A stretch of 64,000 nt of DNA from positions 130,022 through 194,021 of the IMG/VR virus record IMGVR_UViG_3300040801_002290. One strand, written 5' to 3'. Shown piece by piece: positions 33,391-54,657 of the stretch (position 1 is its first letter; each line of letters opens with the position of its first letter). This DNA is from a virus. The position numbers and the translations under genes are program-made. The notes beneath the pieces are model-generated. The model saw only the letters and a list, made by a program, of their open reading frames with translations. It had not been told where the DNA came from and ran no database searches.

Positions 33391-33399
33391 TCAGCCTCC

Positions 33400-33771
33400 T
33401 TAGTTTGTTTCTTCTTCTTCTTCTTCTGACTCCTGTGGAAAAAACCAGGTCTGTTCCACGGACTCTTCTTCCTCTGGCTCCTGAGGCTGGTCGAAGGGCC
33501 AGTCCTGTGCCAACTCTAGAAGTTTTTCATTCCATCTTTCTTCGTAGGACTTTTTTAGAGGAATTACCAACCAATGACCCCTTGGCCAAGTTCCTTCTTC
33601 CCCAACATCCCACGTCTTGTTGAAGTTGTGCCAGCCGTCAAATTCTGGCTGGGTTTCAAAGTACCCCTGTAGACCATCTTCCGGGTCTACAGGGATACCA
33701 TTCTGAATTCTAAAGAGTCGGTAGCGCAGCTTTCGCCTATTAAGCTCCCGAATATCTAATTTTACGGCCAT
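33400..33771 (-). CDS. Hypothetical protein with acidic C-terminus
   Basis: 123 aa in operon. Confidence 0.55.
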   Translation of the reverse strand: MAVKLDIRELNRRKLRYRLFRIQNGIPVDPEDGLQGYFETQPEFDGWHNFNKTWDVGEEGTWPRGHWLVIPLKKSYEERWNEKLLELAQDWPFDQPQEPEEEESVEQTWFFPQESEEEEEETN

Positions 33772-33789
33772 TAGTTACCACCAATCTCA

Positions 33790-35307: not shown

Positions 35308-35381
35308 GAAATCCTCCCTCCTATAGGAGATGAATGCTTAGTTTGTTCCTCATTCTATCAAAACCCCAGGATTATTACTAC

Positions 35382-37820: not shown

Positions 37821-38129
37821 CTACAAACTGTAAGTTACGAACTCCCCATTATAGGTTACCGGAACTCCTCCAAAAGTAACTATACTCTCAAGCACAACAC
37901 CGTTGTCAATTCTAGCAACATAGGAACCTTCTGAGGAGGTAGCGTATATTACAACGTCCTCACCAAAGAAATTTTCTAAACTTTCCAAAATCAAATCCCC
38001 GGTGGAAAAAGCCTCAAAGTTAATCTGTGCTGGAGAAGGTATTATTTCCGAAGAATTATCAGGATGAATTAGGACTTTGGGGTATATGTCATTCACATGC
38101 TCTGGTGAGATAACTATTCTTCCTTTCAT
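37821..38129 (-). CDS. Stand-alone copy of the shared N-terminal module (YPK subtype)
   Basis: VNDIYPKVLIHPDNSSEIIPSP resembles NKEYPKILIEQDGSYSVISTP (809 aa), NNLYPKIKLSDESYEIIPSG (391 aa) and LNDYYPKVALVGEDFVTIP (184 aa). Confidence 0.55.
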   Translation of the reverse strand: MKGRIVISPEHVNDIYPKVLIHPDNSSEIIPSPAQINFEAFSTGDLILESLENFFGEDVVIYATSSEGSYVARIDNGVVLESIVTFGGVPVTYNGEFVTYSL

Positions 38130-38173
38130 CTTGTGTTCCTGCCTCTAGGATTCATACGCTAATAGGTTTGACA

Positions 38174-38584
38174 TCAGAAGGGCTCCATTTTAATGCCTAA
38201 GTCTATGGTTGCACTTCCAGTTCCTATATTCTCTATCTCTATGTTCATATTGTTATCTCCTAGGGAGTCTCTGAAATACCAAGCTTGAGAAACATCTTCC
38301 GGGAGTGCTTCCGTGAACTCAGCAGAATATTTTATTCCTTCCGGGGAATTATCAGAAAAAGCAACTCTTACGGAATTCCCCGCTAAAAGACCAGTTGTAC
38401 CCACGTACACACCGTACATCCTGTTAAAGGGTATAGCGACAGAAGTGGTGTAGGTAGTTGCCTCAGCTACAACGATATCTTCCAAAAGAATCTCAACAAT
38501 ATCCGGTAATTCTTTTTCGGCTATAAGTATTTCCTCCCCGTCTAAACGAAGATTTACCCCGTAGCCCTTAGTGATTTCAGGCAT
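38174..38584 (-). CDS. Hypothetical beta-sandwich protein
   Basis: 136 aa, coupled to neighbour. Confidence 0.55.
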   Translation of the reverse strand: MPEITKGYGVNLRLDGEEILIAEKELPDIVEILLEDIVVAEATTYTTSVAIPFNRMYGVYVGTTGLLAGNSVRVAFSDNSPEGIKYSAEFTEALPEDVSQAWYFRDSLGDNNMNIEIENIGTGSATIDLGIKMEPF

Positions 38585-38954
38585 TTCTACTCCTTGGTTC
38601 TATATAAATAGGAGGATAAATTCTTGGCACCTTAATAGTGGACTGCTCCTTACCCAGATTAAAACCATATTCAATATTGGCAATAGGTCCGGGAATAATA
38701 AACTCTATTGAAGTTACTGAAACGGGTATTGATGACTGTGGAAAAAGGTTGCCCTTGTCTGGGGCCAGCAGGCTGGGACTTTCCTTTTCTCCCTTAGTGA
38801 CTTGAACACCTGTATACAGGGAAGGAATTATTGCCCCAACATTACTAACCGTGTAGTTTTGTATGTTGGTGGCTATATAGGACTCCGGAAAACTATCCAC
38901 CACAACACCAGTGTAGTTATCAACATAGGAGTCTATTGTACCCAAGTCAGCCAT
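38577..38954 (-). CDS. Hypothetical protein
   Basis: 125 aa, TAATG coupling. Confidence 0.55.
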   Translation of the reverse strand: MADLGTIDSYVDNYTGVVVDSFPESYIATNIQNYTVSNVGAIIPSLYTGVQVTKGEKESPSLLAPDKGNLFPQSSIPVSVTSIEFIIPGPIANIEYGFNLGKEQSTIKVPRIYPPIYIEPRSRNA

Positions 38955-40021
38955 TAAGCCACCCGTATAGCAAGTTCGTATTTTATGTCCGTTGAGGAAG
39001 TACCCTCATCAAGGGAGGACACAATCCTATAGGACTGCCCGTTTGAAGTGAAGCTGTCAGATTTAGCTCCTCCAAACGCCCTAGTAATAAGCAAATCACC
39101 AGGCTCTCCTAGGTACCCTCTGGGGTCTATAAGTTTTGTGGAACCGTCAATGTATGCGCCAACTATCTCAGGTCTGAATCCCTCTACAAAGGTTGCCCCA
39201 CCAGACCACTCTGGGACCCTCTTATTTGGTAAAGTTAAATACACTCCTTCGTCCCTGGCATAGTAGTTAGCCCCCCTAATCACAATTGCATAAGAACTCT
39301 GCACAGGAGTTCTTGAGGAGGAAAAAAACATTCCTCTATAGGGTACATCAATTCCATTATTCCATGTTAATGGGTGGTCAGGTAGAGACACCACGACCTT
39401 TGGTGTCTGAACATTAGTAAAATAAACACTAAAGTTCGCGTTTGTTCTGTCAAAATAGACCCCACCAACCTTGGCGTTGTTATTCCAAGACATTGGGTAC
39501 CCACCCCAAAGCGGATAACTAGAGCCGTCGTCCCCCGTGTTGAGCAAGGTAACACCATCGTCTTGGACATAAGGCTCTATACTAAACAATGATACCTCAG
39601 GCAAAACCACACTACCTTGTTCAAACCAAAACACCATATTCTTGAAATTTGGAGTGTTGCTGTGGTTAATAAGTAGGTTGACGTTTCTATCCAAATCCTG
39701 ACCTATTGAATGGTAAGTCTCCACTGGAACTGTCCCAGTACCATCCGTGTAGGCAGCTTTTTCAAAAAACAACACCCTTATTGTGGTGTTATTCACATTA
39801 TTAGTGCTTTGAGTAAGGTCAACATACATGAGAATGTCTCTGCCCGTTCCCAGGTTGTTTCGATAAATTGCATAGGGGTAGGTTGGTGTAGCTCTCTGGT
39901 CTTCGTAAAGTGTCCAACCAGCTAGTGGGTCTGTGAAATTCGTATTAAGTTGAGTAAAAAGCTGTTCATCGGTCCAGGGTGCAGCTAAGTAATCTTGTGA
40001 CCACATACTTGAAACCTCCAA
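38954..40021 (-). CDS. Hypothetical (probable virion) protein
   Basis: 355 aa, beta-rich; start codon uncertain. Confidence 0.6.
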   Translation of the reverse strand: MEVSSMWSQDYLAAPWTDEQLFTQLNTNFTDPLAGWTLYEDQRATPTYPYAIYRNNLGTGRDILMYVDLTQSTNNVNNTTIRVLFFEKAAYTDGTGTVPVETYHSIGQDLDRNVNLLINHSNTPNFKNMVFWFEQGSVVLPEVSLFSIEPYVQDDGVTLLNTGDDGSSYPLWGGYPMSWNNNAKVGGVYFDRTNANFSVYFTNVQTPKVVVSLPDHPLTWNNGIDVPYRGMFFSSSRTPVQSSYAIVIRGANYYARDEGVYLTLPNKRVPEWSGGATFVEGFRPEIVGAYIDGSTKLIDPRGYLGEPGDLLITRAFGGAKSDSFTSNGQSYRIVSSLDEGTSSTDIKYELAIRVA

Positions 40022-40084
40022 AATAATTCTAATTATAGCACTACCCTACGGGCAGACACCAATAAGTTTTGGTATAATCTAGAA

Positions 40085-42514
40085 ATGAGAAGAATACCAG
40101 AAGAAAAATCCCCAATACCCAATAAAGAGTATCCCAAGATACTTATAGAACAAGACGGTAGCTACTCAGTCATATCTACCCCAAACCAACTTCCAGAAGA
40201 AGTGAGTGGTTATTTTATTCAGCCATCAACTAGACCGAGAGATTCCTTTTTCCTAGAATCAAAAAGCACTAAGGGGACCAGGCTGGTTTTTGACTCGGTT
40301 ACTCCTTACGCAACATCAACCGGAAGTAAAAATGACTACAGGGAGTCTGTTGACTTACGTATAAATTACGACTGGAACAACATGAAGGTGTATGTGGTCA
40401 CAACTCCAACAGGGGCCTATTATTTTTGGGCCGGGGTAGTTACCAGAGGAAATAAAATAATTTTAATAGGTGATAAACCTATGGCCTTTGATAGGTATAC
40501 AGGTGAGGAGTTGTGGGGAAAATATGATTGGTCTGGTACGGGGGAAATAGAGTACTCAGAGGAGGACGTATCTGCGGTACATGTTACCGAGGACGGGATG
40601 GTATACTGCCACGACTTATGGCCTCATACAGCAGAAAACGACCATTTCTTTGTCATAAATTCAGAAACTGGGGACATGACAAAATATAATACCGGAATAA
40701 ACTTTAATTCCTCGGTTTTGAAACCAAACGGGGATTTAATCCTTACAGACCAAACAGATGCTAATGCCCCATATAATTTCAATCCAAGAACTGGAGAAGT
40801 TACTCCGCTCCCAGACGAGACCATCGAGTACATATTCAGATATGATGTTGGTTTTACTGAAAAGCTATTTTTTACTCATAGCAGCGACGGAAAAATTCTC
40901 TTTATAAACAACTATTGGAATAACATGGGTGAGGATAATCTCGTAGCTTTAGATTCTGAAACAAACACTGTAGCTTGGAAGCGAGAATATTACATTGAGG
41001 GCGTTACTAACTTCATGCCAGTTCCACAACTAAAGGTTCTGACCGACGGAAAAGGGTTGCTATTTTTAATGGGGGTAGAGTATGAGGGTGCTTGGTATGA
41101 AGAAAGATTTGTGATGTCCTGGTTAAGTGAAAAAACCGGAGAGGTAATTAAAAAAAGGGAAATAAATCGGTATGAGTATGATTCCGAGTTAGACGACTGG
41201 TTCGAAATACCAGAAAATCAAACCTTCTTCGATAACGACTGGTTTCCCACATGGGTAGCAACCCACGATGGGGATAAGGTTATTTTTGCCTCAGACTGGC
41301 CAGCAGAATGTAGAATTATTGACAAAGATTTAAATTTCGAAATCTTCACAGATTTTGAGGTTTCTTCTGGCGTCCTCTACCACTCAGTGGCTTCAAAGGA
41401 TAACAAGCTGCTTTCTGTAGCCCGAAGTAACGAGGGAATAAACTCAGTTTTTGTATTTGACGTAGAGTCTAAAGAAATTAATTATCTAACCAAGTCAGAT
41501 GATTCTTATACTAAATCTACCGCTGTAGAGGAATCCGCAATGCTGTGCCCAAATGAGGACGGGATACTTCACTTTACAGAAGGTGGTCAAGTAATACTCT
41601 ATTCGGACTTAGATTTGCCGCTTAGGCGGGCTGGGAAAGTAAATTCTTCTGGTCGCAAGGGGGAATCTCTGCCAGAGGGGTGGTATACGGATACCGGTAC
41701 AAACCAAATATGGACGCCCCCGTCTTACATAAGCAATTATGTCTCTGGTGAAACTTCTCCAGTATTAATAAATGATGAGCTTTATCTTCTTTTCTATGCA
41801 GACGGAACACTGACGGTTAGGGAATTTGATGGAGAGAAATACGAAGATTTTGCTAGTTATTCAGTTGGGGAAAGAAGGGCTCTCGACAAGGAAGGTTGGT
41901 GGTACACATCTGGGGAAAGATTGAATTTTGTAACGGGGGCTAGAGAGTCCATAGCAACTTCCCCTGTCACGTTCTCCGGAGAGCAGGGGACAAGGGTTGG
42001 GGATGTAGTTTATTTTGAAACCAGATTCGCCCCTCCGTCGGCAAACTCTCAAAACTACCGTTACAATGAATCCACTAACACATGGACAACAATGAATTCT
42101 AGAACCGGAGCTTCTTACTCCAGCTTCCATTACAATGGGTTTTTGTACAATGTGGGAGTAACCACAGTAAGTCCTAGGTATGCAAATATATACCGTTATG
42201 ACCCGGCAACAAACCTATGGTCGTTTGTGTCAGACTCTCCCGTCCCCCCAACCACTAACCCTCTTGTAATGAGGGATAAGATGAAGTTGATAGGGGATGA
42301 AATCTATATGGTTCTTGAAGGGTATAAGTATAACATACCTGGAAATGAGTGGATTCCTATAACCTCAGTGGAGGGCATGAGGGAAGTAGCTTCCGGGGTG
42401 GTGTCTTTTAGACACAGGAATATAATTTACCACTATTTTAGACACGGAACCTGGTCTAGAGTACCGTATAACACAGCGGCCTACGCCCTTCCGGGAGCGG
42501 TAGTACCGCATTAG
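40085..42514 (+). CDS. Paralog family member: N-module + two beta-propeller-like regions (C-terminal Kelch-like)
   Basis: YRYNESTNTWTTM...IYRYDPATNLW...YKYNIPGNEW Kelch-type blades. Leaderless promoter TATAAT 40073-40078 lies 6 nt before ATG. Confidence 0.7.
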   Translation: MRRIPEEKSPIPNKEYPKILIEQDGSYSVISTPNQLPEEVSGYFIQPSTRPRDSFFLESKSTKGTRLVFDSVTPYATSTGSKNDYRESVDLRINYDWNNMKVYVVTTPTGAYYFWAGVVTRGNKIILIGDKPMAFDRYTGEELWGKYDWSGTGEIEYSEEDVSAVHVTEDGMVYCHDLWPHTAENDHFFVINSETGDMTKYNTGINFNSSVLKPNGDLILTDQTDANAPYNFNPRTGEVTPLPDETIEYIFRYDVGFTEKLFFTHSSDGKILFINNYWNNMGEDNLVALDSETNTVAWKREYYIEGVTNFMPVPQLKVLTDGKGLLFLMGVEYEGAWYEERFVMSWLSEKTGEVIKKREINRYEYDSELDDWFEIPENQTFFDNDWFPTWVATHDGDKVIFASDWPAECRIIDKDLNFEIFTDFEVSSGVLYHSVASKDNKLLSVARSNEGINSVFVFDVESKEINYLTKSDDSYTKSTAVEESAMLCPNEDGILHFTEGGQVILYSDLDLPLRRAGKVNSSGRKGESLPEGWYTDTGTNQIWTPPSYISNYVSGETSPVLINDELYLLFYADGTLTVREFDGEKYEDFASYSVGERRALDKEGWWYTSGERLNFVTGARESIATSPVTFSGEQGTRVGDVVYFETRFAPPSANSQNYRYNESTNTWTTMNSRTGASYSSFHYNGFLYNVGVTTVSPRYANIYRYDPATNLWSFVSDSPVPPTTNPLVMRDKMKLIGDEIYMVLEGYKYNIPGNEWIPITSVEGMREVASGVVSFRHRNIIYHYFRHGTWSRVPYNTAAYALPGAVVPH

Positions 42515-42522
42515 TAGGAAAT

Positions 42523-45147
42523 ATGAAAAAACTGACACCTAAAACATCGGATTTTTTACCAGGTAGAAAAGCCTTTTTCAAAAGCGACGGAACTTACTCT
42601 GTAGAAGAGGTAGATACCTTACCAGAGAATTTTGAATTTGGTGTTGAGATACCGACAGAAAACGGAATTTACACTCTGGAAACCTCTTTTGGAGCTTTTT
42701 TGATGTCCGTTACAGTGGAGGAAGTAGTTATTCTCCCCTGGAAATCCACCAGTGGGACCGGTAATGACTATGTTTTTGACGCTACATATGACGACCGGCT
42801 TACACAAAAGGCTGGTCTCTTGCCGGTCATACTTCCGATAGACGTTTCTCAGTTTGACCTTGACGGTTACCGGGTAAGTCCCTTAACAGAGATGAGTTCT
42901 TACTGGGAAGCACCTACACATGCTACTCATTTTGAAGCCGGTGACTTATTCGTGTTTTTCAACGGGGCTTTTGCGGTAAACAAAAATACCTACGAAGTTG
43001 AGTGGATATTTAGCGAGGAGAACAGGTGGCCATTCCCAGCACTTGACAGAAGCTACGGTGCTGCCAATTCTTCCGGAAATGAAGACTACTACGTGGGTAT
43101 TAGTGGTTATGGAGTTGAAGGTCTATATGTACTTAAAACCCAAACCGGTACTCCCATCTACAGAGAAGAACCACTATACTCCCAACCGTATTTAAACGAG
43201 GGTGTACACGTTTTCCCTTCCGGAAGTAACAACAAATTTTTTCTTTGGGATGGAGGGGGGTGGTCTGGGCAGGCTACTCCACAAGTGTACATACTAGAAA
43301 TAGATGAACTAGATAATGTCACCATAACTCTGCATCCAGAAAACGAAACCATGTCTTCCGGTGGAAACTACCTTATGAAAGAAAGACTGTTCATGGCCTC
43401 TAAAAGTTTCTTTGTAGACAAGGAAACCGGAGAATATTACTACTCTAGTGGGGATAGTCTTACAAAGTTCAATCAAGACGACTCAGTTTCCTGGTATCTA
43501 GACTACGACGACGGTGCTTTAGGAGCAGCAGGCTGGTTCCCACAGGGTTGGGGGGCTTTCTGTATTAAAAGAAAAGGAAAGATAATAGTTTTCTCAAGGT
43601 GGACAGTTCCTCTTATCATAGACGACGTGACAGGAACTTGGGAAATTGCAGAGATAGACCCACTAGCCACAGTAACTGGGGATTATGATGGTTTTGTAGA
43701 ATACCCTCTAACTGATTTTTGGGATAGTTATGAGGTAGAAATGCCAAGAGTAGTCTCTGATGATATAGACTACCTACCGATGCTGAATGAGTTTAGTAAT
43801 TCAGGAGATTTTGTGGAGCTTCTAGTTACTGACTTGGATACATTTAATGTTAGAAGTATTGCGGTTATTCCAGGCGAAGGTGAGTCTGTGTTTTATAACC
43901 AAACAGGATGGCCAATTATAAATCACAGAACAGGGGTAGCATACATAAGGGTTTTTAACAGAAACTCCGGTGGAGACAATTTATATAGACTAATTGGATG
44001 GTCTAACGAAGGAGTAGTAACAAATATAATTCTTTCCTACTGGAATCATGAAGGAACAAACGGGTTTTACATAGAGGACTTGGCCCCCAGTCTAATGTTG
44101 GCCGAATCTGGAGATTTACTCATACATATAGAAAATTGCATAGCAAAATATGGAGATGAGGTTTGGACTCTAAATGTTGGACAGAACGCCCAGTTAGTGG
44201 CTGACGAATGGTATACAACTAAAAATACCACTTGGGACCCAGGAGTGCCTCTGTTTGAAGTCGGAATGACTACTAACTCATGCGCTACCAACGTCTATGG
44301 GGAAATAAATACTAGATACTTCCCTTACTCGGTTAGAACCTTTGCAGACACAACCGACGGTTCCGGTATTTTTAATCAATCATTGCTGCCTGGATTCTCA
44401 GCCAGTAGCTCTCTTGATATAACGAACCTGTTCCCGACTGGTGTTCCAAATGAATTCATATCCACTCCCAGAGTAAGTGGAACTACCACGTCCGCTACTG
44501 TAAGAAATTTAAACCTTGAGACCGGCTCAGTCACAGACCTTGTTCTGCCAGACATAACCACGGGATTGGTCAACGCCTCAAGGTACATAAGAGAGTCGGC
44601 AGTCATGCGACCAAATGGAAATATAGTATTCCTTTATCACAAAGTTTACAACTTTGAGTCCCCAGAGTTGAGAATGTTTGAATACGACGGGGCTTCTTGG
44701 TCGGCTAAATCAAATACTATTTACCCAGCCTCTGAAAACGACCCCAATAATCCTATCGGAAGCTCTGGCTATAGAAGACATCTGTCTGTTTATCACAATG
44801 ATAAGGTGTACTCCATACTGTTTAAGAGAGTTGCAGGGGACGACTTCCATGTCAGAGAGTACAGCTTCGATACTGACACCTGGACTGATTATGACTCTAT
44901 CCCCGTCCCAGAAGTCCCAATAAACAGGCTATCAATTAGTGCTAGCTATAACAACGGGAAGGTATATTTTACTAACGGATATGTGTATGACATAGATGAG
45001 AAGGTGCTATTCACACTCCCTAATTTCCCATTTCCAGATTTCAGCAGTGCGAGATATGTCACATTTAGAAATAACTGTTTGATTTTCCTTGACTGGGATT
45101 TAATACTGCACGTATATGCTTTGGAAAATACCCCGGCTCCATACTAA
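42523..45147 (+). CDS. Paralog family member: N-module + two beta-propeller-like regions
   Basis: MKKLTPKTSDF...LPENFEFGVEIPTENG N-module; FEYDGASWS and EYSFDTDTWT blades. Confidence 0.7.
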   Translation: MKKLTPKTSDFLPGRKAFFKSDGTYSVEEVDTLPENFEFGVEIPTENGIYTLETSFGAFLMSVTVEEVVILPWKSTSGTGNDYVFDATYDDRLTQKAGLLPVILPIDVSQFDLDGYRVSPLTEMSSYWEAPTHATHFEAGDLFVFFNGAFAVNKNTYEVEWIFSEENRWPFPALDRSYGAANSSGNEDYYVGISGYGVEGLYVLKTQTGTPIYREEPLYSQPYLNEGVHVFPSGSNNKFFLWDGGGWSGQATPQVYILEIDELDNVTITLHPENETMSSGGNYLMKERLFMASKSFFVDKETGEYYYSSGDSLTKFNQDDSVSWYLDYDDGALGAAGWFPQGWGAFCIKRKGKIIVFSRWTVPLIIDDVTGTWEIAEIDPLATVTGDYDGFVEYPLTDFWDSYEVEMPRVVSDDIDYLPMLNEFSNSGDFVELLVTDLDTFNVRSIAVIPGEGESVFYNQTGWPIINHRTGVAYIRVFNRNSGGDNLYRLIGWSNEGVVTNIILSYWNHEGTNGFYIEDLAPSLMLAESGDLLIHIENCIAKYGDEVWTLNVGQNAQLVADEWYTTKNTTWDPGVPLFEVGMTTNSCATNVYGEINTRYFPYSVRTFADTTDGSGIFNQSLLPGFSASSSLDITNLFPTGVPNEFISTPRVSGTTTSATVRNLNLETGSVTDLVLPDITTGLVNASRYIRESAVMRPNGNIVFLYHKVYNFESPELRMFEYDGASWSAKSNTIYPASENDPNNPIGSSGYRRHLSVYHNDKVYSILFKRVAGDDFHVREYSFDTDTWTDYDSIPVPEVPINRLSISASYNNGKVYFTNGYVYDIDEKVLFTLPNFPFPDFSSARYVTFRNNCLIFLDWDLILHVYALENTPAPY

Positions 45148-45148
45148 G

Positions 45149-45178
45149 AAAAAGGGCTCCTTTTACGGAGCCCGTTTT
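45149..45178. terminator. Bidirectional intrinsic terminator between convergent genes
   Basis: AAAA-GGGCTCC-TTTTAC-GGAGCCC-GTTTT. Confidence 0.8.
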
Positions 45179-45185
45179 ACTAACC

Positions 45186-46682
45186 TCATACTTGAGGCAG
45201 AATCTCTAGCCTATTTACAGTAAACTCATCGAGAGAGTAACTGTAGTGTACCCAGTAAACATAGTTTCCTATTATGGACAGGTTTGAGTTGCCGTTATAC
45301 TGCGCGTCCACCTCTCGTATAAAGAAATACCCAGAAGAATCAATTATCTCAACTTCATTGTCGTATGAGTGTGGGAGGACAGTCCCGTCGTTATCTACGA
45401 TAATTGGGATTCTAGCGTCCATGTCATACCCTGGTTGCTCATAAAAAGTAGTTATGGACACTGAGTCAGTGACTTTTGAGTCCAATTTGTATATTTTATG
45501 ATAGTCCTGCAAGTATATAAACCCGTCTGGGTCAACATAGGAGATATTTCCATCCCCCTCTATAATCCCAGTGACATCCCAGGTATTAACAACCTGTCCA
45601 TCCTCTCTTCGGTACTCATTTACAGTATAGGTTAGGTTACCAGAGACTCTATTGTCACCCCTAGTGCCCACGATGTTGCCGTTTGGCAGTATTCCAACAA
45701 ATTCTTCGATGTATGAGCCGCCCTCACCACCAACTGCGGTACCAGTGTTATCATCTTCCCACAGTAATTCGTAGGTAGACAGGTCTATAGCTCTAATTCT
45801 TCTTCTGGTAGGGCTTACTTGCATGTCTCCTATGCATATGGTGTTCGTGTTTTCATCAAATTTAAAATTAAACATCTGATGGTAACCAAAGCCAATGCCG
45901 TTTTGTGTGGGAATCTCAGTGTGTACAAAATTACCAAGATGCTCCAGAGTCAAGTCCTTGAATCTGTAGACAGAGGTGTAATTATCTCCGATAATCATGA
46001 ACCTGTTATTGGGCAGTTCCATGATTCCAGCGTATCTAACCGGGTCCGCATCCGGTATTGGGTAGCTATAAGAAACCTCGTTATCTGTGTCTATATAGTA
46101 CAAAAGGGCCTCTGCGGTATCAAAAGCTAAAAACCCGTTGAACTGCCTGGAAAGTATATAATCAAAGGTGTAGATACTTGCTTCTGCGTCGGATAGATGG
46201 GAATTTATAAGAGTGTATGAGGAAAAATCCGTAGGAAACTTAATTACCCCGTAAGGAATGGCTGTGTTGGTATCTATGTCCCTGGTCATACAGCCGAAAA
46301 CGTAATAATCCCCAAAATCTATCAGGCTGTCGTAGTAGGCTTCATAAGGTAGGCTAGGTAAGGTGTCCTTAGTAAAAACAACTTCCTGAATCCCCAAACT
46401 GCCACCGTTTTCAAAACCCATGGAGTTATTAAGTCGAAAAGTTCCGTCACCGTAGCTGCCAGTTCTGGTTGACCACAAAATACTTATTTCCTTCGAAATT
46501 TTTAAAACAAAGCTACCTAAAACAGAAGAGATAAAATATACTCCCTTCTCGGATGGCAACTCAACACCGAAGGAGAATCCCTCAGGTAGTGTTTCCGAAT
46601 TAGAAATCTCATAGTTTCTATCGGGTTTAATAACCACGGATTTACCGGTAAAACCTTCTAACTTTGGAATGAGTCTTTTCAT
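45186..46682 (-). CDS. Paralog family member: N-module + beta-propeller (PQQ-like blades)
   Basis: MKRLIPKLEGF...LPEGFSFGVELPSEKG; AIDLSTYELLWE and EYRREDGQVVNTW. Confidence 0.7.
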   Translation of the reverse strand: MKRLIPKLEGFTGKSVVIKPDRNYEISNSETLPEGFSFGVELPSEKGVYFISSVLGSFVLKISKEISILWSTRTGSYGDGTFRLNNSMGFENGGSLGIQEVVFTKDTLPSLPYEAYYDSLIDFGDYYVFGCMTRDIDTNTAIPYGVIKFPTDFSSYTLINSHLSDAEASIYTFDYILSRQFNGFLAFDTAEALLYYIDTDNEVSYSYPIPDADPVRYAGIMELPNNRFMIIGDNYTSVYRFKDLTLEHLGNFVHTEIPTQNGIGFGYHQMFNFKFDENTNTICIGDMQVSPTRRRIRAIDLSTYELLWEDDNTGTAVGGEGGSYIEEFVGILPNGNIVGTRGDNRVSGNLTYTVNEYRREDGQVVNTWDVTGIIEGDGNISYVDPDGFIYLQDYHKIYKLDSKVTDSVSITTFYEQPGYDMDARIPIIVDNDGTVLPHSYDNEVEIIDSSGYFFIREVDAQYNGNSNLSIIGNYVYWVHYSYSLDEFTVNRLEILPQV

Positions 46683-46688
46683 TTAAAA

Positions 46689-47864
46689 TTACCTAACCTT
46701 TATAAAATACATTAATGGTGCTTCTTCATAGCTGGGTGCTGCATAACTTCCTGTGTAAAAAATAGCTCCGTCTACTTCTACCATATTACCTCCATAGTCT
46801 TCGTTTGGAAAAGCCAGAACGTTATATTCTAACTCAAAAGTATTCACATCAATGGAGTGAATATAAGTAGCAGTCGCGTCTATTTGTTCATAACCCTCAA
46901 AATAAGCTTTTCCATCTACAATTGCACATGGGTAATAGTTGGTGCAGTGGTGCCAAATATTAGCGGCCTCCAAATCTGCCTGCCCAACCACCTCCCACCC
47001 AGAGGCAAATGTGTACCTATACACGTTAGTATTTAGAATTGGGTCCTCTAAAGCCACGTCTATAGACCCTCCGAAAAGATAAATCTCTGTTTCTGTATAA
47101 TAAAAGTAGGGAAATTTAATTCTTTCTGGCAACTCAGGAAGCTCTACCCAAATATCTTCTCTCGGGTCGTAGTAATGGTGAGATTTTAGGTGTCTAGTAA
47201 TAGGGGGGACGTTTTGGTTACTATAGCCGCTAAATGTGTGTATATACTCAAGACCATCTCCGTGCTTTATAACGGCAATACTAAAATCCGTGCCAAGACT
47301 GAATTCGTCTCTATCGGCCATTCTTTTCCAAGTATTTCCCTTTTCTAAATCACAAACATAAGTATCTGGAATGTATGAGGTTGTGTCCCAATCGTATATT
47401 CCCGTAACCAGAATTTTTGTTTCATCAAAGACTATGTGAGAGGTAGAGTAAAGGTTTTTGGGGAACATTGAGAGAACGGGATAATTCCACTCTCCTGATT
47501 TTAAATCGTAGGTACCAACGAACCTATTACCTTCACTGTTTGCGTAGGAGATAAGACCAAGCCCTATATATAGTTTATCTCCTATTTTTCTAATCATGCT
47601 TGTATAGGACGAGGTAAATGGTGGCTGAGGTACAGGAAAGTAGTCCGAAGACTGGGAATAAATCCCATTTGGGAGTTCAAACTCCACTACCACCCCTTCC
47701 GAAGAAATTTTTCTGTAAAGTTGGCCCCATCTTGACTCGGTTGGAGAAAGGAGAGATTCTCCAAACCCCACTTCCGGACTTCCAGAAGGAATAATCTCGT
47801 AGCTTTCATCGGATAATTTTATCTTGGGATACAGGTTGTTTATTTTCTTAGTAAAAACCTTCAT
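46689..47864 (-). CDS. Paralog family member: N-module + Kelch repeats
   Basis: YDLKSGEW, CDLEKGNTW, YYDPREDIWVELPELP, IYLFGG, YRYTFASGW. Confidence 0.75.
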   Translation of the reverse strand: MKVFTKKINNLYPKIKLSDESYEIIPSGSPEVGFGESLLSPTESRWGQLYRKISSEGVVVEFELPNGIYSQSSDYFPVPQPPFTSSYTSMIRKIGDKLYIGLGLISYANSEGNRFVGTYDLKSGEWNYPVLSMFPKNLYSTSHIVFDETKILVTGIYDWDTTSYIPDTYVCDLEKGNTWKRMADRDEFSLGTDFSIAVIKHGDGLEYIHTFSGYSNQNVPPITRHLKSHHYYDPREDIWVELPELPERIKFPYFYYTETEIYLFGGSIDVALEDPILNTNVYRYTFASGWEVVGQADLEAANIWHHCTNYYPCAIVDGKAYFEGYEQIDATATYIHSIDVNTFELEYNVLAFPNEDYGGNMVEVDGAIFYTGSYAAPSYEEAPLMYFIKVR

Positions 47865-49633
47865 TAGACTACCTCAACCGTAATTATCAGAGGTTCTACT
47901 ATCTGGTTATTGGTAAAATCACCAGAAATAGCACCAGGGTTAATCGTTAGGGTTAGTGTCTCTCCTGTAGTTAAGGTTAGGTTTTCTATATAGAGTCTGG
48001 ATAGACCGTAACTTTCGTTAATAGTTAGGGGCTCTATATCGCCCGATACCGTGCCAGTAAGAGAAATTAAGCTGTTATCTAGAAGTAGAATATCTTCACC
48101 AAAATCAACACTTAATAAAGTATCTCCGTTCCATAACTGTGCTTCCTTTACAATTAGTTTAGGCGGTGTCTCTCCCGGACTTCCAAAGCTCTTTATTCTA
48201 TTGCCAGTTGAAATTAGAATTTTTCCGTCAAATGTTACTGTCGGAGGAGGGGAATAAGGGCTTAGAAAAGGACTTGGGTCAGAGATTCCAATAACTCCAT
48301 CTTTGCTAACAAAGACCATACATCCATTGTAGTCAGTATCCTCATAAACGAAGAAACAGGCGATTCCGTTCCTGAATGTTAAAGGTAACCCCCTTATAAT
48401 ACTGTTAATGACATACCCAGGTAGAAACTCTTTTTTCTTAACCCGCCAATTTTTAACGTCAAAAAATGTAACTTCTAACATTGAAGGGTTAGACACGTCA
48501 GTGTAGTAGAAAAAAGTATCCTCATCCAAAAACGCCCCTAGCTGAACAAAACTATTATCCGGGTCACCACTCTCGTCAAGAGTGTTTCTTAAAAGTTGTC
48601 CCGTAGTTCCATCCACCTCTACAAGTCTGACCCTAGAGTCGCTGTCTGAGGTAATCCCACCATCCGTAGTACCGAAGTAAAGACCTAACAGCAAGTTCCC
48701 TGTGTATGGGTTTAGTTGCATTAGCATTATTTCATCTACATCAGTATTGGACCAAAGTATCTCTCCAGTCAAATTATCAACTTTCGTCAATCCACCAAAA
48801 CTGTCAGACATTGCGTAGGTACCGGACTGGGAAATATGGACATAATTATTTCCAAACCACTCATTAAATGGAATTATATCATCTTTTACCAAAACTAAAC
48901 TGTTATTTTCAACACGAAGAAGTCTCTCGGTACCAGCCTGTCTATTTTTATAAAAAAATGTATCCCCCTCAATGTGATTCATCATGTTTACGGTTGGTGT
49001 ATTTTGATTACTATAAGGACCGAGATACTCATAATTTTCGTAAATTACATTTCCCTCGTAATCCACTACAGACAATCCAGCATAATGGTCTACACCTACC
49101 GTCTTCCTGGTGGGCATGACTATATAATTTTCCATAAATAAACATAGCCAAGCACTTCCTCCCCTGCCTCCAGAAGCAGAGTAAGACCAAATCTCCTGAC
49201 CATCAGAAAAACACACTATCTTGTCAGGAGTGCCAGACCCACCATAAATGTAGGAGTACTCAAACTCCCCCCTGTTAACCCACACTGGGTAGTAATTCCC
49301 GAAAATAGATGGAACAAAATAATCAGAGTAGTCCTCAAAGATATTATTTTCGCTAAACCGATAGTCCAACTCTATGTGATTTCTTCTGTAGGGAGAAGAC
49401 CCGTGATTATAGCCCCACTGGGAAAAGGGTCCAGTCCTAATTAACTTAGCACCGTCAGAGTCTGAAAATACGTAATTAGCTTCCTCGGGGGCTTCAAAAC
49501 CCTTTTCGTATCCTTCCGGAGGAGAGGAAGACAGGGAGTATCTAACATCCTCTCCCAGAAAAAGTTTTCTACCTTCTGAAAATCCTGATGTTTTTGGCTT
49601 AATTTTTATTGTTTTCATATTTTTATTAAACAC
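47864..49633 (-). CDS. Paralog family member: N-module + PQQ-like propeller + C-terminal Ig-like domain
   Basis: IKPKTSGFSEGRK...PPEGYEKGFEAPEE; KVDNLTGEILWS and EVDGTTGQLL; C-terminal LTINPGAISGD shared with the 184-aa protein (LTIPVGAFSGD). Confidence 0.7.
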   Translation of the reverse strand: MFNKNMKTIKIKPKTSGFSEGRKLFLGEDVRYSLSSSPPEGYEKGFEAPEEANYVFSDSDGAKLIRTGPFSQWGYNHGSSPYRRNHIELDYRFSENNIFEDYSDYFVPSIFGNYYPVWVNRGEFEYSYIYGGSGTPDKIVCFSDGQEIWSYSASGGRGGSAWLCLFMENYIVMPTRKTVGVDHYAGLSVVDYEGNVIYENYEYLGPYSNQNTPTVNMMNHIEGDTFFYKNRQAGTERLLRVENNSLVLVKDDIIPFNEWFGNNYVHISQSGTYAMSDSFGGLTKVDNLTGEILWSNTDVDEIMLMQLNPYTGNLLLGLYFGTTDGGITSDSDSRVRLVEVDGTTGQLLRNTLDESGDPDNSFVQLGAFLDEDTFFYYTDVSNPSMLEVTFFDVKNWRVKKKEFLPGYVINSIIRGLPLTFRNGIACFFVYEDTDYNGCMVFVSKDGVIGISDPSPFLSPYSPPPTVTFDGKILISTGNRIKSFGSPGETPPKLIVKEAQLWNGDTLLSVDFGEDILLLDNSLISLTGTVSGDIEPLTINESYGLSRLYIENLTLTTGETLTLTINPGAISGDFTNNQIVEPLIITVEVV

Positions 49634-49635
49634 CC

Positions 49636-52272
49636 CTAAAACGGTGGAGAAAGACTTTCTTCTAGCGGCCTAAACGCTAAATAACTTGAACCTATAGCAT
49701 GATAATAGGCAATAAGATAATCCCCCCAGGCTTGAAGGGTTATTCTTGAGGCACCAATTGCTCCAGAAGGCCCATACAGGGCATTAAAGTTTGTTGAGTA
49801 GGGGACTTCTGCGAATTGCCCAGAGTCAATGTTGTACTCAAAACCATTCGAAAAATATAAAATTCCGTTCCTCTCAGTTGTGTTTACCCCGGAAAAACTT
49901 ATCGGGCTGTCGTAGTAGTTGGACCCAACTGGCGTAGAAACAGATGAGTGAATAGTCCAGGAAGGCGTGTCCCAATTGTAAACAGAGAAAACGGCATCTC
50001 CACCATCTACGGCACGAAACGCATACAGAGAGTCGTTGTGAATGAAATATCTTTGGGCTGAGGCACTTGTTAGGTTGAGAGTTGGTCCAGTCAACCATGA
50101 AGAGCCGTCGTGCTGCATAATAATTGTTTGAGTGAAGCTTGCCCTAACAACTACAGGAGTGCCGTCCTGCCTAAAGAGATATCTGTACGGCCTGATTGTT
50201 GCTGAAATTCCATAGTACGGATACCCAGGCACGTTTCCCATTTCTCCAGTAATAGCGTTAAAGAATTGTGACCCACCGCTACTTGCGGTTGAAACACAAA
50301 CAACGGTCTCCTGGTCTGGTGCAAGAGTGGTTGCAAGAGACGAGAGACTTGCGGCAGAGAAACCAGTCCTGAGAAAGAAAAGCCTCCCCGTCTCCAAATT
50401 AAGAGTGTTTGTTCTCCTAGTTAAGGGTATAAAGTTAGCCGAAGATGGTAGCTGACTGGTAGATAATATGGCAGCGGGGTTTAGGGAGTAATCAGAAAAC
50501 GGCCTTAATCCCGTATTCCAATGCTCGGATTTAAAATCATACCACTCATCCTTAACTAGGGTTACTGTAGACCCCTCGTTTTTTCGTGGTCTTACACTAA
50601 GAGAGGATGAGAAAATTTGGTTTGCGTAGGTCATTCCATAAATTCTACCTTGACTGGAAACAGCGGATTGTAGGGAGTAAGAGGTAACCTGGGACGTATA
50701 ATCAAAACCAAAGTCTATCTTCTCATAGGATATGGTGTCAAAATTAGCCCCCAACCTCACCAAAAACTGACCACTAAATTGGTTTCCTCCAAAATCATCT
50801 GGCTCATACAGGTTTACGAAGTAGAAATACTTCCCGTCAGCTTCTCGTTGAAGAATACCAGTACCACCATCTAATGGGTAGGCAAAGAAGGCAGAGGAAC
50901 CCGGAAAAGCAAAATCTCTATAGTCAACCCACTCCAAGGTGTCGATATCAAAATGACCATATACAATAGCCTCTTGTTCCAAAAACTCTGTGTGACCTAT
51001 GAAAGGTATTTTACTACCCTCTGGAGCTTTGGGGTAAACTATATTAATAAACTGTCTTTCAATAGTATATTCTCCGACTTTTTCATTTAAAGAGGTCGGT
51101 AGAGAAATCTCTAATCCAGTAGAATCGTCTAGTACGGTAAGACCAGCAGACTCCCCCACAGAAGGCATGTTTCCGTAACACGGCAAAAAAGCTATTCTCC
51201 CACCGGCTTTACAAAAGTTATAAAAGATGTAGTCAGGCGCATTAAATGTTGGCAAGTCATAGAGGTCGTAAATCCACTCTATGCTATGTGAAGAGTTAAA
51301 CTTTATTAAACTTCCCGTCTCTTGTGACCAATTGCTGAAATAAAGCAAATAATAGGACCCTTCCTCTGTGTCCAAATAGAATCCATTGTTCCAAATACCC
51401 CAATACTGATAGTAGGAGTTTTCATACCAACCCCAAAAAACTCTCTTGCCAGAGTTCAAAGCACCACTTTCTGGATGCTCCACTATAGTCACTCTACTGC
51501 CTGGGTCAGCAGTTGGGTCAACAGTAATTATATACCCTCTACCAACATTGCTGGTATAATCATCCCCAATGTACAGAAATTCATTCTTACCGTTTAATTG
51601 GAGTAGGTTCCCCTCTTCTGGGTAGTCAACGTTAAGAAACACGGATTGGGGAACTTCTTCTATAACAGCACCACTGGAGGTATCCAATACAACTAAGTTG
51701 GTGTCCTCATGGAGAAATATAAAAAACTCGTCATTGACCACAAACCTGCTGCTGTGCAACCCCCACGGGTAGGATGGAGAACCATTCTGGTCAAGGTAAA
51801 CCCAATTTATATCTCCTGTGTCCCTGTTAATGGACATGGGGTTATGGGGAACGATAAGCGAGTTTCCGATTTCTACGAAACTTCTTGTGTAATTAAAATT
51901 ACCGTCGTCAAACCGACCACCAAAAACATATACACCGTCCTGATAAGCCCCAGTAGATTCACCGTCCGTAAGAACAAATAAATCATGAGTATCCCTGTCT
52001 GGGATGACAGCGCCAGCAATATAAGAATTATTTCCCAATAGACCGGTGGAAGTTGACCAAGGAAGTATTTCTATACCATCCCCCAGAATTTTTATATACA
52101 TAGCCCCCAACTGAGTCCGGGCAAAATAATTGCCCTCTTCCTCGGGAAGCTCAAAGCCAAATACAGTATTCTCTGGCAAGGATTCGCTTTCGCCTATCTC
52201 GTAAGTAAAATCCTCACGTACGAATAGGGATTTTTTAGTAAACCCTGATTTTTTAGGAGTAAGCTTTTTCAT
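49636..52272 (-). CDS. Paralog family member: N-module + two beta-propeller-like regions (start revised to 52272)
   Basis: MKKLTPKKSGF...LPENTVFGFELPEEEG. Minus-strand TG-TATAAT at 52279-52284 lies 6 nt before ATG 52272. Confidence 0.7.
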   Translation of the reverse strand: MKKLTPKKSGFTKKSLFVREDFTYEIGESESLPENTVFGFELPEEEGNYFARTQLGAMYIKILGDGIEILPWSTSTGLLGNNSYIAGAVIPDRDTHDLFVLTDGESTGAYQDGVYVFGGRFDDGNFNYTRSFVEIGNSLIVPHNPMSINRDTGDINWVYLDQNGSPSYPWGLHSSRFVVNDEFFIFLHEDTNLVVLDTSSGAVIEEVPQSVFLNVDYPEEGNLLQLNGKNEFLYIGDDYTSNVGRGYIITVDPTADPGSRVTIVEHPESGALNSGKRVFWGWYENSYYQYWGIWNNGFYLDTEEGSYYLLYFSNWSQETGSLIKFNSSHSIEWIYDLYDLPTFNAPDYIFYNFCKAGGRIAFLPCYGNMPSVGESAGLTVLDDSTGLEISLPTSLNEKVGEYTIERQFINIVYPKAPEGSKIPFIGHTEFLEQEAIVYGHFDIDTLEWVDYRDFAFPGSSAFFAYPLDGGTGILQREADGKYFYFVNLYEPDDFGGNQFSGQFLVRLGANFDTISYEKIDFGFDYTSQVTSYSLQSAVSSQGRIYGMTYANQIFSSSLSVRPRKNEGSTVTLVKDEWYDFKSEHWNTGLRPFSDYSLNPAAILSTSQLPSSANFIPLTRRTNTLNLETGRLFFLRTGFSAASLSSLATTLAPDQETVVCVSTASSGGSQFFNAITGEMGNVPGYPYYGISATIRPYRYLFRQDGTPVVVRASFTQTIIMQHDGSSWLTGPTLNLTSASAQRYFIHNDSLYAFRAVDGGDAVFSVYNWDTPSWTIHSSVSTPVGSNYYDSPISFSGVNTTERNGILYFSNGFEYNIDSGQFAEVPYSTNFNALYGPSGAIGASRITLQAWGDYLIAYYHAIGSSYLAFRPLEESLSPPF

Positions 52273-52286
52273 AAGAGTATTATACA

Positions 52287-52321
52287 AAAATAACCCGGAG
52301 CATAACACTCCGGGCTATTTC
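52287..52321 (-). terminator. Intrinsic terminator after the 184-aa gene
   Basis: CCCGGAG-CATAACA-CTCCGGG hairpin with a T-run on the minus strand. Confidence 0.7.
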
Positions 52322-52335
52322 GTTACTTAGTTTTA

Positions 52336-52890
52336 TTATACGCCAGCAGCTACGTACGTAATTGTGTAGACACTTTCAAGAACATTCTCGCTCGGGTCTC
52401 CGGAGAATGCGCCGACAGGAATTGTCAATACAAGCTCTGTCTGTCCAGTAGCAATGGTGGGTCCACTAATTGTAAGTGTGTCGTTAAGTACTGTAGCAGA
52501 AGCAGAAATATCTACCGGAGTTGCGGCAGGGTTTTCTACTAGAGTTACAGAAGCCAAATCCACGGCCTGAATATTCTCGCTAAACTGAATAACGATATCC
52601 GTGGCCATAGCTCCACCGGCTGTAGGGTAATTTATTGTTCCACCAGCTACAGGAGTGGCAGTTAGTACTTCCAAGAAGGTTTCTGTAGCCTTTAGAACTA
52701 CAGTTCCATCATTGGTCTGAATAACGAACATATCTTCGCCGGTAACTTTTTCAGCGGGCTCCAAGACGTACTCATACTCTGCCGGTACATCTGCTACGGC
52801 GGGGATAGTAACGAAATCCTCACCAACTAGAGCTACCTTTGGGTAATAGTCGTTTAGGGCGACTCCGAATGCTTTTCTAACGAATTCCAT
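52336..52890 (-). CDS. Paralog family member: N-module + Ig-like (SbsA/Big_5-like) domain
   Basis: YYPKVAL N-module; NYPTAG...DIVIQFSENIQAVDLASVTL...LTIPVGAFSGD; AAGGAGG SD. Confidence 0.65.
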   Translation of the reverse strand: MEFVRKAFGVALNDYYPKVALVGEDFVTIPAVADVPAEYEYVLEPAEKVTGEDMFVIQTNDGTVVLKATETFLEVLTATPVAGGTINYPTAGGAMATDIVIQFSENIQAVDLASVTLVENPAATPVDISASATVLNDTLTISGPTIATGQTELVLTIPVGAFSGDPSENVLESVYTITYVAAGV

Positions 52891-52901
52891 TTAATTCCTC
52901 C

Positions 52902-53285
52902 TTAATAAGGGCTTATAGTGTCAGAGATTGCGTATGCAGCTAAAGCTCCTGACGCAGTTGTCATAAACAACAAATCGCCAAGTCTAAAAATGGGGTTTTG
53001 TAAAATTCCCGAGCTGTTTGAATAGGGTCTACTGTAGTAACTGTCTCTAAAGTTGAATGGTATTATTCCAAATTCCTTATTTTGCACGTTATAGTAGTAT
53101 GAGTTTGCGAAATGTACAGTTCCCTCGTAAACGCAGTGGGTCAGGGTTTCAAACCTGAAATCATCTTGCGTATAGCTACTATGCCCTATTATAGCATCGT
53201 ATTCGGGAGACGGTAGATTTGGAACTGACTGTGTATCATACAAAGTTTGTTGAGCGGTGTTGAAATCGTATTCAGTATTATACAT
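52902..53285 (-). pseudogene. Orphan C-terminal fragment of a propeller paralog (CDS or remnant)
   Basis: YEGTVHFANSYYYNVQNKEF...GDLLFM...LAAYAISDTISPY parallels the C-termini of the 874- and 878-aa paralogs. Lacks the N-module; in-frame TAG two codons upstream of ATG. Confidence 0.45.
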
Positions 53286-53340
53286 AATCTAGAGGGAAAT
53301 TTTTTTGCTACCTCCTGTGTTTTTGGAGTAAAATATACCC

Positions 53341-54657
53341 ATGAAAAAACTTCAAATTAAAAGACAAGACTTCTCTTCTGGGAAAAAAATATTCTTCTTC
53401 GAAGATAATTCATTCACAGTTTTATCAGAGGCACCAGAAGAATTTTCTTTTGGTGTGGAGATACCCAATGAAGAGGGGATTTTTACCTTTTCCTCCGGAC
53501 AGTCCTCGTATGTACTAAAAACCGGAGCAAACAGACACTTCTACGTCTTCGTTAATAGAGAAGAATTTTCCCTATCAACAACCGGAGTGTCCTTTACTAA
53601 AGTTACCTACGAAAACGAGGTAACAATAGAAGAAGAAGTATATTTTCCAGATAGGGTAGTATACTACACCCTTTTCTTAGAAAATTTTGTCGTATGCCGA
53701 GAAAGAAACGTTCACGATACGGTGTTTGTTATAAATTTAAAAGAGAAGGTTGGCAGAGAATACTCGTTTCCAATATCCGTAGTGAATGGCTCTAGACTTT
53801 TTTATGGGGCAGAAGAAGAAGACAATACCGTCTACTTATATTCAAGGGACAGAAAAACATCTGTTCCCGTAGACCACAAACTTCATGTCTCTTTAATAGA
53901 TTGGGAAGCAGACACATTTACCCCGACAGAAATAACATTTCCGGGTATTCCAACTACCGCATCATCTATAGCGGTAGACGGTGGAATAAAAATTACAGAA
54001 GATTTTATATACCTATACGACCCCAGAGGAACACCTAGAGGGTTGATTATAAAACTAGACAAGCAACTGAACTACTTATATCACCAAGAAGGTCTTCCAG
54101 AAACCTATCTGGAGCCCGATGACGTATTTTTAAACTGTTACAATATGGAGGTAGGTGGAGAATACATCTATCTCCCTGGGCACTCCTACAGGGGAGATGT
54201 CTGTGAGCTTTACTTGGCGGTTTTACAAGATACAGGAACAGAATTTTTACCCAACCCCGGATTAATCAGACTAGAAGAATTTGTAGAAGAAGCAAATGAT
54301 AGTCTTGGTTTTACAGAAATATACTATTCTCAAATAGAGGGGGATAATATATATCTGGTGGGATGGAGATGGGATAATTACTTTAACGCCGGGGCTCAAT
54401 ATGAAAATGGAATCTACCTAGCCTCAGTTAGTTTGAATACCCTTGAAAAAAATTGGTCACGCATATATTACGAATCTGAGGTAGACTTTCCCTTTGAAGA
54501 AGGGGGAACGTATAAATTAATCGTAATCAATGATAGAATTTATGTTGCGATAGACACTTTCTCTTCTACTAACGAAGAAAAACTTTATGTGTTTTCTATT
54601 GAAAACGGAGATTTTATTGAGAGACTAGTACCTGGGTATAGGTACGTAATCATCTAA
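53341..54657 (+). CDS. Paralog family member: N-module + one beta-propeller-like region
   Basis: MKKLQIKRQDFSSGKK...APEEFSFGVEIPNEEG. Leaderless promoter TAAAAT 53329-53334 lies 6 nt before ATG. Confidence 0.7.
   Translation: MKKLQIKRQDFSSGKKIFFFEDNSFTVLSEAPEEFSFGVEIPNEEGIFTFSSGQSSYVLKTGANRHFYVFVNREEFSLSTTGVSFTKVTYENEVTIEEEVYFPDRVVYYTLFLENFVVCRERNVHDTVFVINLKEKVGREYSFPISVVNGSRLFYGAEEEDNTVYLYSRDRKTSVPVDHKLHVSLIDWEADTFTPTEITFPGIPTTASSIAVDGGIKITEDFIYLYDPRGTPRGLIIKLDKQLNYLYHQEGLPETYLEPDDVFLNCYNMEVGGEYIYLPGHSYRGDVCELYLAVLQDTGTEFLPNPGLIRLEEFVEEANDSLGFTEIYYSQIEGDNIYLVGWRWDNYFNAGAQYENGIYLASVSLNTLEKNWSRIYYESEVDFPFEEGGTYKLIVINDRIYVAIDTFSSTNEEKLYVFSIENGDFIERLVPGYRYVII

Follow-up and report, generated by a model that had tools for sequence, protein, structure and literature searches.

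Why should a large phage carry an array of genes whose protein products all begin with the same short domain and then continue into quite different bodies? This question is raised by a stretch of DNA (called the window here) that makes up the last 64 kilobase pairs (kb) of a 194-kb uncultured virus record (IMG/VR record IMGVR_UViG_3300040801_002290; CheckV completeness 97%). Its gene content includes a portal and a DNA polymerase, and small early-gene cassettes occupy it from ~55 kb on. Between positions 40085 and 54657 it encodes eight proteins that start with a homologous N-terminal module (N-module) of ~65 amino acids (aa), five with modules of sequence subtype A and three of subtype B, and two further modules are encoded without a body at 37821–38129 and 27365–27694 (Table 1). 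This set of eight fused members and two stand-alone modules is the largest seen. An earlier sequence-only reading of the region had described a shared N-module with nine different bodies and a single stand-alone form; the shared module is confirmed, but eight fused members were counted, a 127-aa open reading frame (ORF) in the array being without a module, and the second stand-alone module lies outside the region which that reading covered.

The interpretation that we favor, which we regard as slightly better than an even bet, is that these proteins are virion-displayed binders that dock through the N-module. Each consists of a six-strand N-module, a short flexible linker and a body made of one or two propellers or of an immunoglobulin (Ig)-like domain. 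The N-module is the constant part and most likely docks every member at one type of site on an appendage of the virion; the bodies would provide different specificities, most likely for cell-surface glycans or proteins, and the stand-alone modules would probably be body-less occupants or partners of the same site. Candidate sites are a fiber, the baseplate, or an appendage formed by homologs of gp53 and gp54 of the cyanopodovirus Syn5. Presence in the virion, the docking role and its site are inferred: this interpretation best fits a folded module on a tether, bodies of extracytoplasmic types, the re-assortment of modules and bodies, the existence of body-less modules, and nearby fiber, depolymerase and virion genes. 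The architecture, homology, shuffling and gene context are direct observations.

Subtype A modules begin with MK(K/R)L.PK..F, followed by LPE..FG.E.P.E.G, and subtype B modules are marked by N..YPK(I/V). The subtype A N-termini match one another pairwise with blastp expect values (E) of 1e-5 to 1e-20 in a family-only database, and a profile built from the five A modules scores 57–117 bits (E 1e-10 to 1e-29) against a library of 1.84 billion representative proteins, well beyond chance. A search of this library with the A profile returned 38 proteins at E <= 0.001, 26 of them at E <= 1e-10; these are 81–926 aa long, and the match starts at residues 1–7 in all but three. About 33 other clusters, all metagenomic, carry the module, in every case at residue 1. 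The three exceptions are giant repeat proteins with many short partial matches. They raised an Ig-like reading of the module, which was rejected: the matches are short repeated pieces (DG.F.V...LPEG), and the module has no Big_13 or Big_6 match and no match to an Ig fold in searches that gave nothing above Z 4.3, a result that says little by itself. Of the two giant proteins scanned with Pfam, P0037 proved to be a Big_13/Big_6 repeat adhesin, and P0006 gave only promiscuous matches.

The module appears to be a discrete folded domain. In an AlphaFold model of the 498-aa member made with an alignment of 35 family members (mean predicted local distance difference test score [pLDDT] 79; predicted template modeling score [pTM] 0.78), residues 1–62 form a six-strand domain (pLDDT 85–96), and the linker at residues 66–76 is disordered (pLDDT <50). 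The model of the 102-aa stand-alone module (pLDDT 80, pTM 0.70) has eight strands; the first six match those of the 498-aa protein's module in the same order, and the two C-terminal ones are less confident. Comparison of the A and B profiles with hhalign pairs exactly those six strands, a match that is weak alone (E 0.003, probability 10%). A 547-aa protein of the related phage L005 bridges the two subtypes, since the profile of either one finds it (A, 8e-7; B, 8e-8). On the evidence, in decreasing order of weight, of this bridge, the exchange of A and B modules between orthologous bodies (below) and the presence of the same six strands, the A and B modules are one family; the two sequence subtypes of the sequence-only reading stand, but not as separate families.

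Both stand-alone modules have counterparts in relatives. The 102-aa protein is 46% identical to a 96-aa protein of L010, and both lie at the same spot in a conserved block of genes; in L010, L014 and L015 alike a stand-alone module has a fixed place in this structural block. The 109-aa protein, which is more diverged, matches the B profile at E 0.0048 on the genome and 2.8e-4 among the ORFs, and a profile of stand-alone modules matches it at E 1.7e-36. It is 46% identical to a 109-aa protein of L005, which itself scores E 3.9e-8.

The module had been thought to belong to no described family, and this agrees with the searches made here. It has no match in Pfam at E <= 1, in PHROGs at E <= 0.001 or in NCBIfam, and the family profile matches no sequence in the PDB. 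A Foldseek search of PDB folds gave nothing convincing (best E 0.056), and the Foldseek-independent VIA-align wide comparison with 48,161 chains gave a best Z of 4.3, which is under the stated noise level. There was no fold match in BFVD, and the best score in the ESM Atlas was 0.83, with none >0.85. No sequence or fold match was found to fiber and spike anchor domains (T4 gp10-like and others), a comparison in which fold searches can miss a distant relationship. Searches by tblastn with whole members, the module, the stand-alone module and the Kelch half gave no credible match in 50,697 deposited phage genomes, and back-translated patterns yielded no confirmed relative in IMG/VR, 185,579 species genomes and JGI metagenome contigs. 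So far, then, the module family is restricted to one small clade, made up of large phages that have not been cultured.

The family is found at six metagenomic loci; among them, the 209-kb phage L005 has three members and one stand-alone module, the 15-kb fragment L010 four members and one stand-alone module, and L014 three members and stand-alone forms. Comparison of these loci with the window indicates that modules and bodies have been shuffled, both between paralogs and between phages. The 809-aa protein, with a B module, and a 792-aa protein of L010, with an A module, are full-length orthologs over ~800 aa (E 2e-51) at the same position. Similarly, the body of the 878-aa protein follows an A module and matches that of an 875-aa protein of L014 that has a B module. 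The 874-aa protein's body is 76% identical to that of its 876-aa L015 ortholog and its module 63%; this module shares 73% identity with the one in an L011 protein which has a body like that of the 498-aa member. The Ig-like domain of the 184-aa protein, which there follows a B module alone, is 53–56% identical to the C-terminus of a 560-aa L010 protein composed of an A module and a propeller. We propose that such exchange could occur without loss of attachment because all modules fit the same site. A constant module with a variable binder, as the sequence-only reading had it, is thus borne out in that a discrete folded domain on a disordered linker has been re-assorted with different bodies in evolution.

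The bodies of the 809-, 391- and 498-aa proteins match Kelch or PQQ/BamB propellers by profile or fold. The Kelch_6 match of the 809-aa protein (33.7 bits) exceeds the Pfam cut-off; those of the 391-aa protein to Kelch_FKB95, NANM and Kelch_1 all fall under the cut-offs, and it also has a weak match to the YjhT mutarotase. In a Foldseek search the 498-aa body matched YxaL (7eq5_B, E 1.5e-10), BamB and the designed eight-bladed Tako8 (E 1.5e-10 to 6e-8). The 874-, 878- and 438-aa bodies are assigned as propellers only by homology to other members or by all-beta prediction; that of the 438-aa protein is 36% identical to P0025. The sequence-only reading had correctly recognized a related linker in the double-body proteins; it reads (D/E)(E/G)WY...W in all three (Table 1). 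The Big_5 (PF13205) assignment in the 184-aa protein has a best E of 0.0033 (18.6 bits versus a cut-off of 23.6) and reaches 2e-4 in one relative; the domain has no significant match among PDB sequences, and the FSE.I ... LTIP.GA pattern typical of it is seen in the alignment. This same domain aligns with the C-terminal end of the 584-aa protein. Bodies in the relatives include propellers of the PQQ_2 (2.7e-8), DUF5122 (1e-121), Rax2 and FG-GAP types. In bacteria PQQ_2/BamB, Kelch/NanM, DUF5122 and Big_5 are extracytoplasmic or carbohydrate-binding types.

Table 1. Genes and sequence signals of the N-module family and its neighborhood in the window
Feature	Coordinates	Strand	Description
809-aa member	40085..42514	+	B module (profile E 3.5e-33), first propeller, EGWY...W linker at residue 531, C-terminal Kelch propeller
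874-aa member	42523..45147	+	A module and double body, DEWY...W linker at residue 561
498-aa member	45186..46682	-	A module (residues 1-62), disordered linker (66-76), predicted 8-bladed PQQ/BamB/YxaL-like propeller
391-aa member	46689..47864	-	B module (profile E 6.7e-30) and Kelch-type propeller
584-aa member	47864..49618	-	A module (profile E 2e-14), propeller, C-terminal Ig-like (Big_5-type) domain
878-aa member	49636..52272	-	A module and double body, DEWY...W linker at residue 575
184-aa member	52336..52890	-	B module (profile E 5e-31) and one Ig-like (Big_5-type) domain
438-aa member	53341..54657	+	A module (profile E 1.6e-24) and propeller-like all-beta body
102-aa stand-alone module	37821..38129	-	Subtype B; kept in relatives as 91-98-aa proteins
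109-aa second stand-alone module	27365..27694	-	Diverged B type; stop 3 nucleotides from start of collagen-like fiber gene
127-aa ORF	52902..53285	-	Lacks a module; paralog of the ~120-aa C-terminal end (~two Kelch blades) shared by the 874- and 878-aa proteins
-10 box and ATG layout	40073-40087	+	TATAAT-N6-ATG; 809-aa gene, head of two-gene operon
-10 box and ATG layout	52270-52284	-	TATAAT-N6-ATG; 878-aa gene, head of four-gene operon
-10 box and ATG layout	53329-53343	+	TAAAAT-N6-ATG; 438-aa gene, single-gene unit
Two-way terminator-like hairpin	45154..45173	.	Between the convergent 874-aa and 498-aa genes
Terminator-like hairpin	52294-52314		Directly upstream of the 878-aa gene
Neighbor trio (350/355, 125 and 136 aa)	38174..40006	-	L010 counterparts 56%, 43% and 75% identical; gene order shared with L010, L014 and L015
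Syn5 gp55 (187 aa), gp53 (505 aa) and gp54 (526 aa, C-terminus) homologs and 537-aa phrog_1645 protein	31214..36962	-	Syn5 homologs found by tblastn or phmmer (gp55-like 31214-31777, gp53-like 33790-35307, gp54-like 35382-36962); 537-aa protein by its PHROGs match

The array is divergent from a ~19-kb block (40006 to 21248) whose genes all point in one direction. From its start at 40006 this block contains, in order, the 350/355-, 125- and 136-aa trio, the 102-aa stand-alone module, a 160-aa protein, a 526-aa protein with a gp54-like C-terminus, a 505-aa gp53 homolog, the 537-aa phrog_1645 protein, a 187-aa gp55 homolog, a 763-aa fiber, the second stand-alone module, a collagen-like fiber, and a 1779-aa depolymerase-like protein of the pectate-lyase/DUF4874 type. 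The block's gene order recurs in L010 and L015, and in L005 the three members adjoin a collagen-like fiber and a Pel9A/DUF4874 protein. The 505-aa protein and Syn5 gp53 share 40% identity along 100% of the query (tblastn E 8e-91, phmmer 2.7e-101), the 526-aa protein is related to gp54 only in its C-terminal ~85 aa (tblastn 7e-9, phmmer 7e-14), and the 187-aa protein is related to gp55 (phmmer 2e-15). The phrog_1645 match of the 537-aa protein is to a virion structural protein (E 3e-60), and Syn5 gp53 and gp54 are annotated as structural proteins in GenBank (for the Syn5 structural proteins see also Raytcheva et al. 2014, cited in PMC4102127). Syn5 itself has no N-module proteins, and the 197-kb relative Rctr197k also has the gp53/54/55 block and has no module in the last 49 kb, which were examined, so the link between this block and the family is one of neighborhood only. 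The stand-alone module and the 136- and 160-aa neighbors were also tried as homologs of Syn5 gp56, gp57 and gp58 and were rejected (phmmer, none at E <= 1). Proteins like gp53 occur further in S-TIP28, Maribacter phage Panino and a Manatee Spring virus.

Several observations weigh against display on the virion. All members are metagenomic and are known from their genes alone. The module resembles no known fiber-anchor domain in the PDB Foldseek, VIA-align wide and BFVD searches, and propellers on a flexible linker look, as modeled, monomeric, unlike classical trimeric fibers. The sole baseplate-like gene found, a Baseplate_J-like 747-aa frame at G000:C1:81-84 kb (E 9e-5, under the Pfam cut-off), is separated from the family by ~88 kb on its upstream side, and Phage_sheath_1 has no match anywhere in the record. 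In close orthologs the bodies are 76–86% identical and the modules 63%. A module that is less conserved than the body is unusual for an anchor, since as a rule the anchor is conserved and the tip varies, and it weakens the idea of a strictly constrained docking surface; this difference could also fit neutral exchange of equivalent modules between paralogs.

The organization of transcription is a further such point. The array is divided into three or four units, which begin at 40085 (then 42523), 52272 (then 49618, 47864 and 46682), 53341 (alone) and 53285 (then 52890). Leaderless promoters had been proposed at three members in the sequence-only reading, and as a sequence feature this holds: TAWAAT-N6-ATG falls exactly on the starts at 40085, 52272 and 53341, which are three of six matches in the window, and 1.24 would be expected by chance. 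The five members that do not head operons all have Shine-Dalgarno leaders. A generic sigma-70 scan of the region gave no enrichment (36 sites versus 38 in shuffles), and only the -10 box followed by 6 nucleotides and ATG stands out. The leaderless layout of the three operon heads is no sign that the family is expressed late. In Deinococcus-Thermus, adjacent -10 boxes and leaderless mRNAs are common (PMC12340547).

The leaderless operon heads also speak for an unlikely alternative, in which the proteins act inside the cell: the bodies would capture host or defense proteins, and the module would hand them to one partner shared by all, for instance a protease, a polymerase or a phage factory. The position of the family, which borders the early cassette region on one side, suits this idea, as do the 58–86% conservation of orthologous bodies, which would be expected for fixed targets, and bodies that look monomeric on a flexible tether. 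The sequence-only reading had left the choice open between a library of virion receptor binders and such intracellular adaptors, and had named branched multi-tailspike systems and eukaryotic BTB/F-box-Kelch adaptors as examples of a constant adaptor with a variable binder. Eukaryotic and poxviral BTB-Kelch and F-box-Kelch proteins do share with the window proteins a constant N-terminal adaptor, a Kelch propeller and an expanded set of paralogs, but no BTB or F-box was detected with Pfam at E <= 0.1 in whole members or E <= 1 in the modules, Pfam and NCBIfam scans revealed no other known adaptor domain, and phage hosts have no ubiquitin system; the resemblance is one of logic only. Moreover, most of the bodies belong to families that are extracytoplasmic or bind sugars, Ig-like domains of the Big_5 type are reportedly typical of virion surface proteins in phages (Fraser et al. 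2006), one stand-alone module lies inside the conserved structural block, and the L005 members are found among fiber and depolymerase genes. The context of fiber, depolymerase and Syn5-homolog neighbors, together with the body types, favors the virion over the cell interior.

A bolder form of the virion reading, which we consider doubtful, is that the N-module is a universal docking tag in a virion display system of a new kind. It would load a mixture of monomeric, lectin-like propellers and Ig-like domains either onto the head or onto an appendage akin to the horn of Syn5, with the stand-alone modules acting as caps or competitors that set the number of binders. Syn5 gp53 and gp54 presumably form that horn, and homologs of both, and of gp55, are neighbors of the family here. 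T4 Hoc and T5 pb10 are capsid decoration proteins composed of an anchor domain and an exposed Ig-like domain; like them, the 184-aa member has an N-terminal anchor, a linker and an Ig-like domain that would be exposed. A head location is conceivable, given the homologs of Syn5-type head-appendage genes next door. To our knowledge only one such decoration protein per phage has been described, the anchor of pb10 is helical, and no homology of these proteins to the window family was found.

Distinctly improbable, in our judgment, is self-association of the modules, by which fused and stand-alone forms would together build a ring or bundle, a mixed oligomer that is itself the appendage and displays mixed bodies. 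Stand-alone modules are kept in every relative with enough context, and the modules are freely exchangeable, both of which such an assembly would accommodate. It would also need no separate partner, and none common to all module-bearing phages was found: a homolog of the 355-aa neighbor was not found on L005, which bears module proteins, in a word-based search that is weak evidence, so the 355-aa protein is probably not a universal hub. Against this, both types of stand-alone module carry extra C-terminal strands where the fused forms have a linker instead. Finally, it seems very improbable that these are late non-virion proteins, soluble and lectin-like or decoys released at lysis, with an N-terminus that helps them to fold or to be expressed, as in leaderless translation; strong conservation of the very first residues (MKKL.PK) and the leaderless starts of three genes suit this idea, but the five non-head members with Shine-Dalgarno leaders keep the module too, and the module is a 60-residue folded domain, far beyond a translation signal, that also exists as a conserved stand-alone protein.

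Display on the virion through the N-module would have clear parallels. A constant N-terminal anchor with variable binders in arrays of paralogs is a design well known from multi-spike phages. In CBA120 and other Ackermannviridae and in G7C, with their branched tailspikes, and in the Klebsiella jumbo phage PhiK64-1, with its depolymerases, several receptor-binding proteins are mounted on one phage. As in the window, these are paralogs with a conserved N-terminal attachment and different C-terminal binders, and their genes lie side by side near fiber genes, with parts exchanged by recombination. Their anchors, however, are T4 gp10-like domains or short peptides on trimeric beta-helix spikes, whereas the window family has a six-strand anchor without a detectable relative, apparently monomeric propeller or Ig-like bodies on a flexible linker, and a virion location that is proposed here. 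That a propeller can serve as the receptor-binding part of a phage adsorption protein is illustrated by staphylococcal receptor-binding proteins with a beta-propeller platform (phi11 Gp45, PMC4901313; the 80alpha baseplate, PMC7048315). Those proteins differ in being trimers on a coiled-coil stem in a siphovirus baseplate, one or two per phage, and have no sequence or fold link to the module. Three elements of the window family are new: its anchor domain, main bodies that are apparently monomeric propellers, and stand-alone modules that are conserved.

If display on the virion is correct, the module would be a new docking domain for mounting several receptor binders on one phage particle, apparently monomeric beta-propellers could be used as exchangeable binding heads, and the little-studied gp53/gp54 homologs of large phages would gain a testable role as a mounting platform. 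The module could enter family databases and allow annotators of metagenomes to recognize such proteins, and its clean boundary with linker and body offers a handle for host-range studies in laboratory phage-host pairs.

Several details of the array and its surroundings deserve comment. The sequence-only reading had placed the start of the 584-aa gene at a GTG at 49633; homology puts it most likely at the ATG at 49618. The 127-aa ORF matches the 874- and 878-aa proteins with blastp E values of 0.001 and 0.014 in a small family database, and may be either a leftover of recombination or a small protein in its own right; it is the head of the unit that also holds the 184-aa member. Between the array and the structural block, the 63-bp divergent control region (40022-40084) contains a pair of extended -10 boxes placed back to back: TGCTATAAT points toward the structural block, which has a leader and a GGAGG, and TGGTATAAT toward the leaderless 809-aa member.

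Within the block, the neighbor trio has no family match; the 355-aa protein has a weak structural look-alike in the Atlas, a cluster labeled "putative minor tail protein" (template modeling score 0.51), and otherwise only unnamed viral clusters. The 160-aa protein (36962-37444, minus strand) has no match in Pfam at E <= 0.05 or PHROGs at E <= 0.01. In the relatives a pair of genes (~520 aa and 110 aa) lies between the homolog of the 136-aa protein and the stand-alone module (L010 3521-5409, L015 5731-7637, L014 7125-9007), and the corresponding interval of the window (38130-38173) is without it. The last 24 residues of the 110-aa protein are 62% identical to the window's 125-aa protein. The collagen-like fiber (26589-27362), the 763-aa fiber (28912-31203; both minus strand) and their relatives (L005 7214-8284; L014 12655-13383 and 5224-5670) have another N-terminus in common, MP(L/I)... 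D.L..GR.KLN(T/S), and in L014 this is fused to a homolog of the 136-aa neighbor. The collagen-like fiber gene probably starts at the ATG at 27362 and not at the TTG at 27368. A plus-strand ORF at 37527-37934 is probably spurious, its conservation in L010 reflecting a minus-strand gene for a 70-aa protein (37450-37810) that has a TGATATAAT box at 37798-37806.

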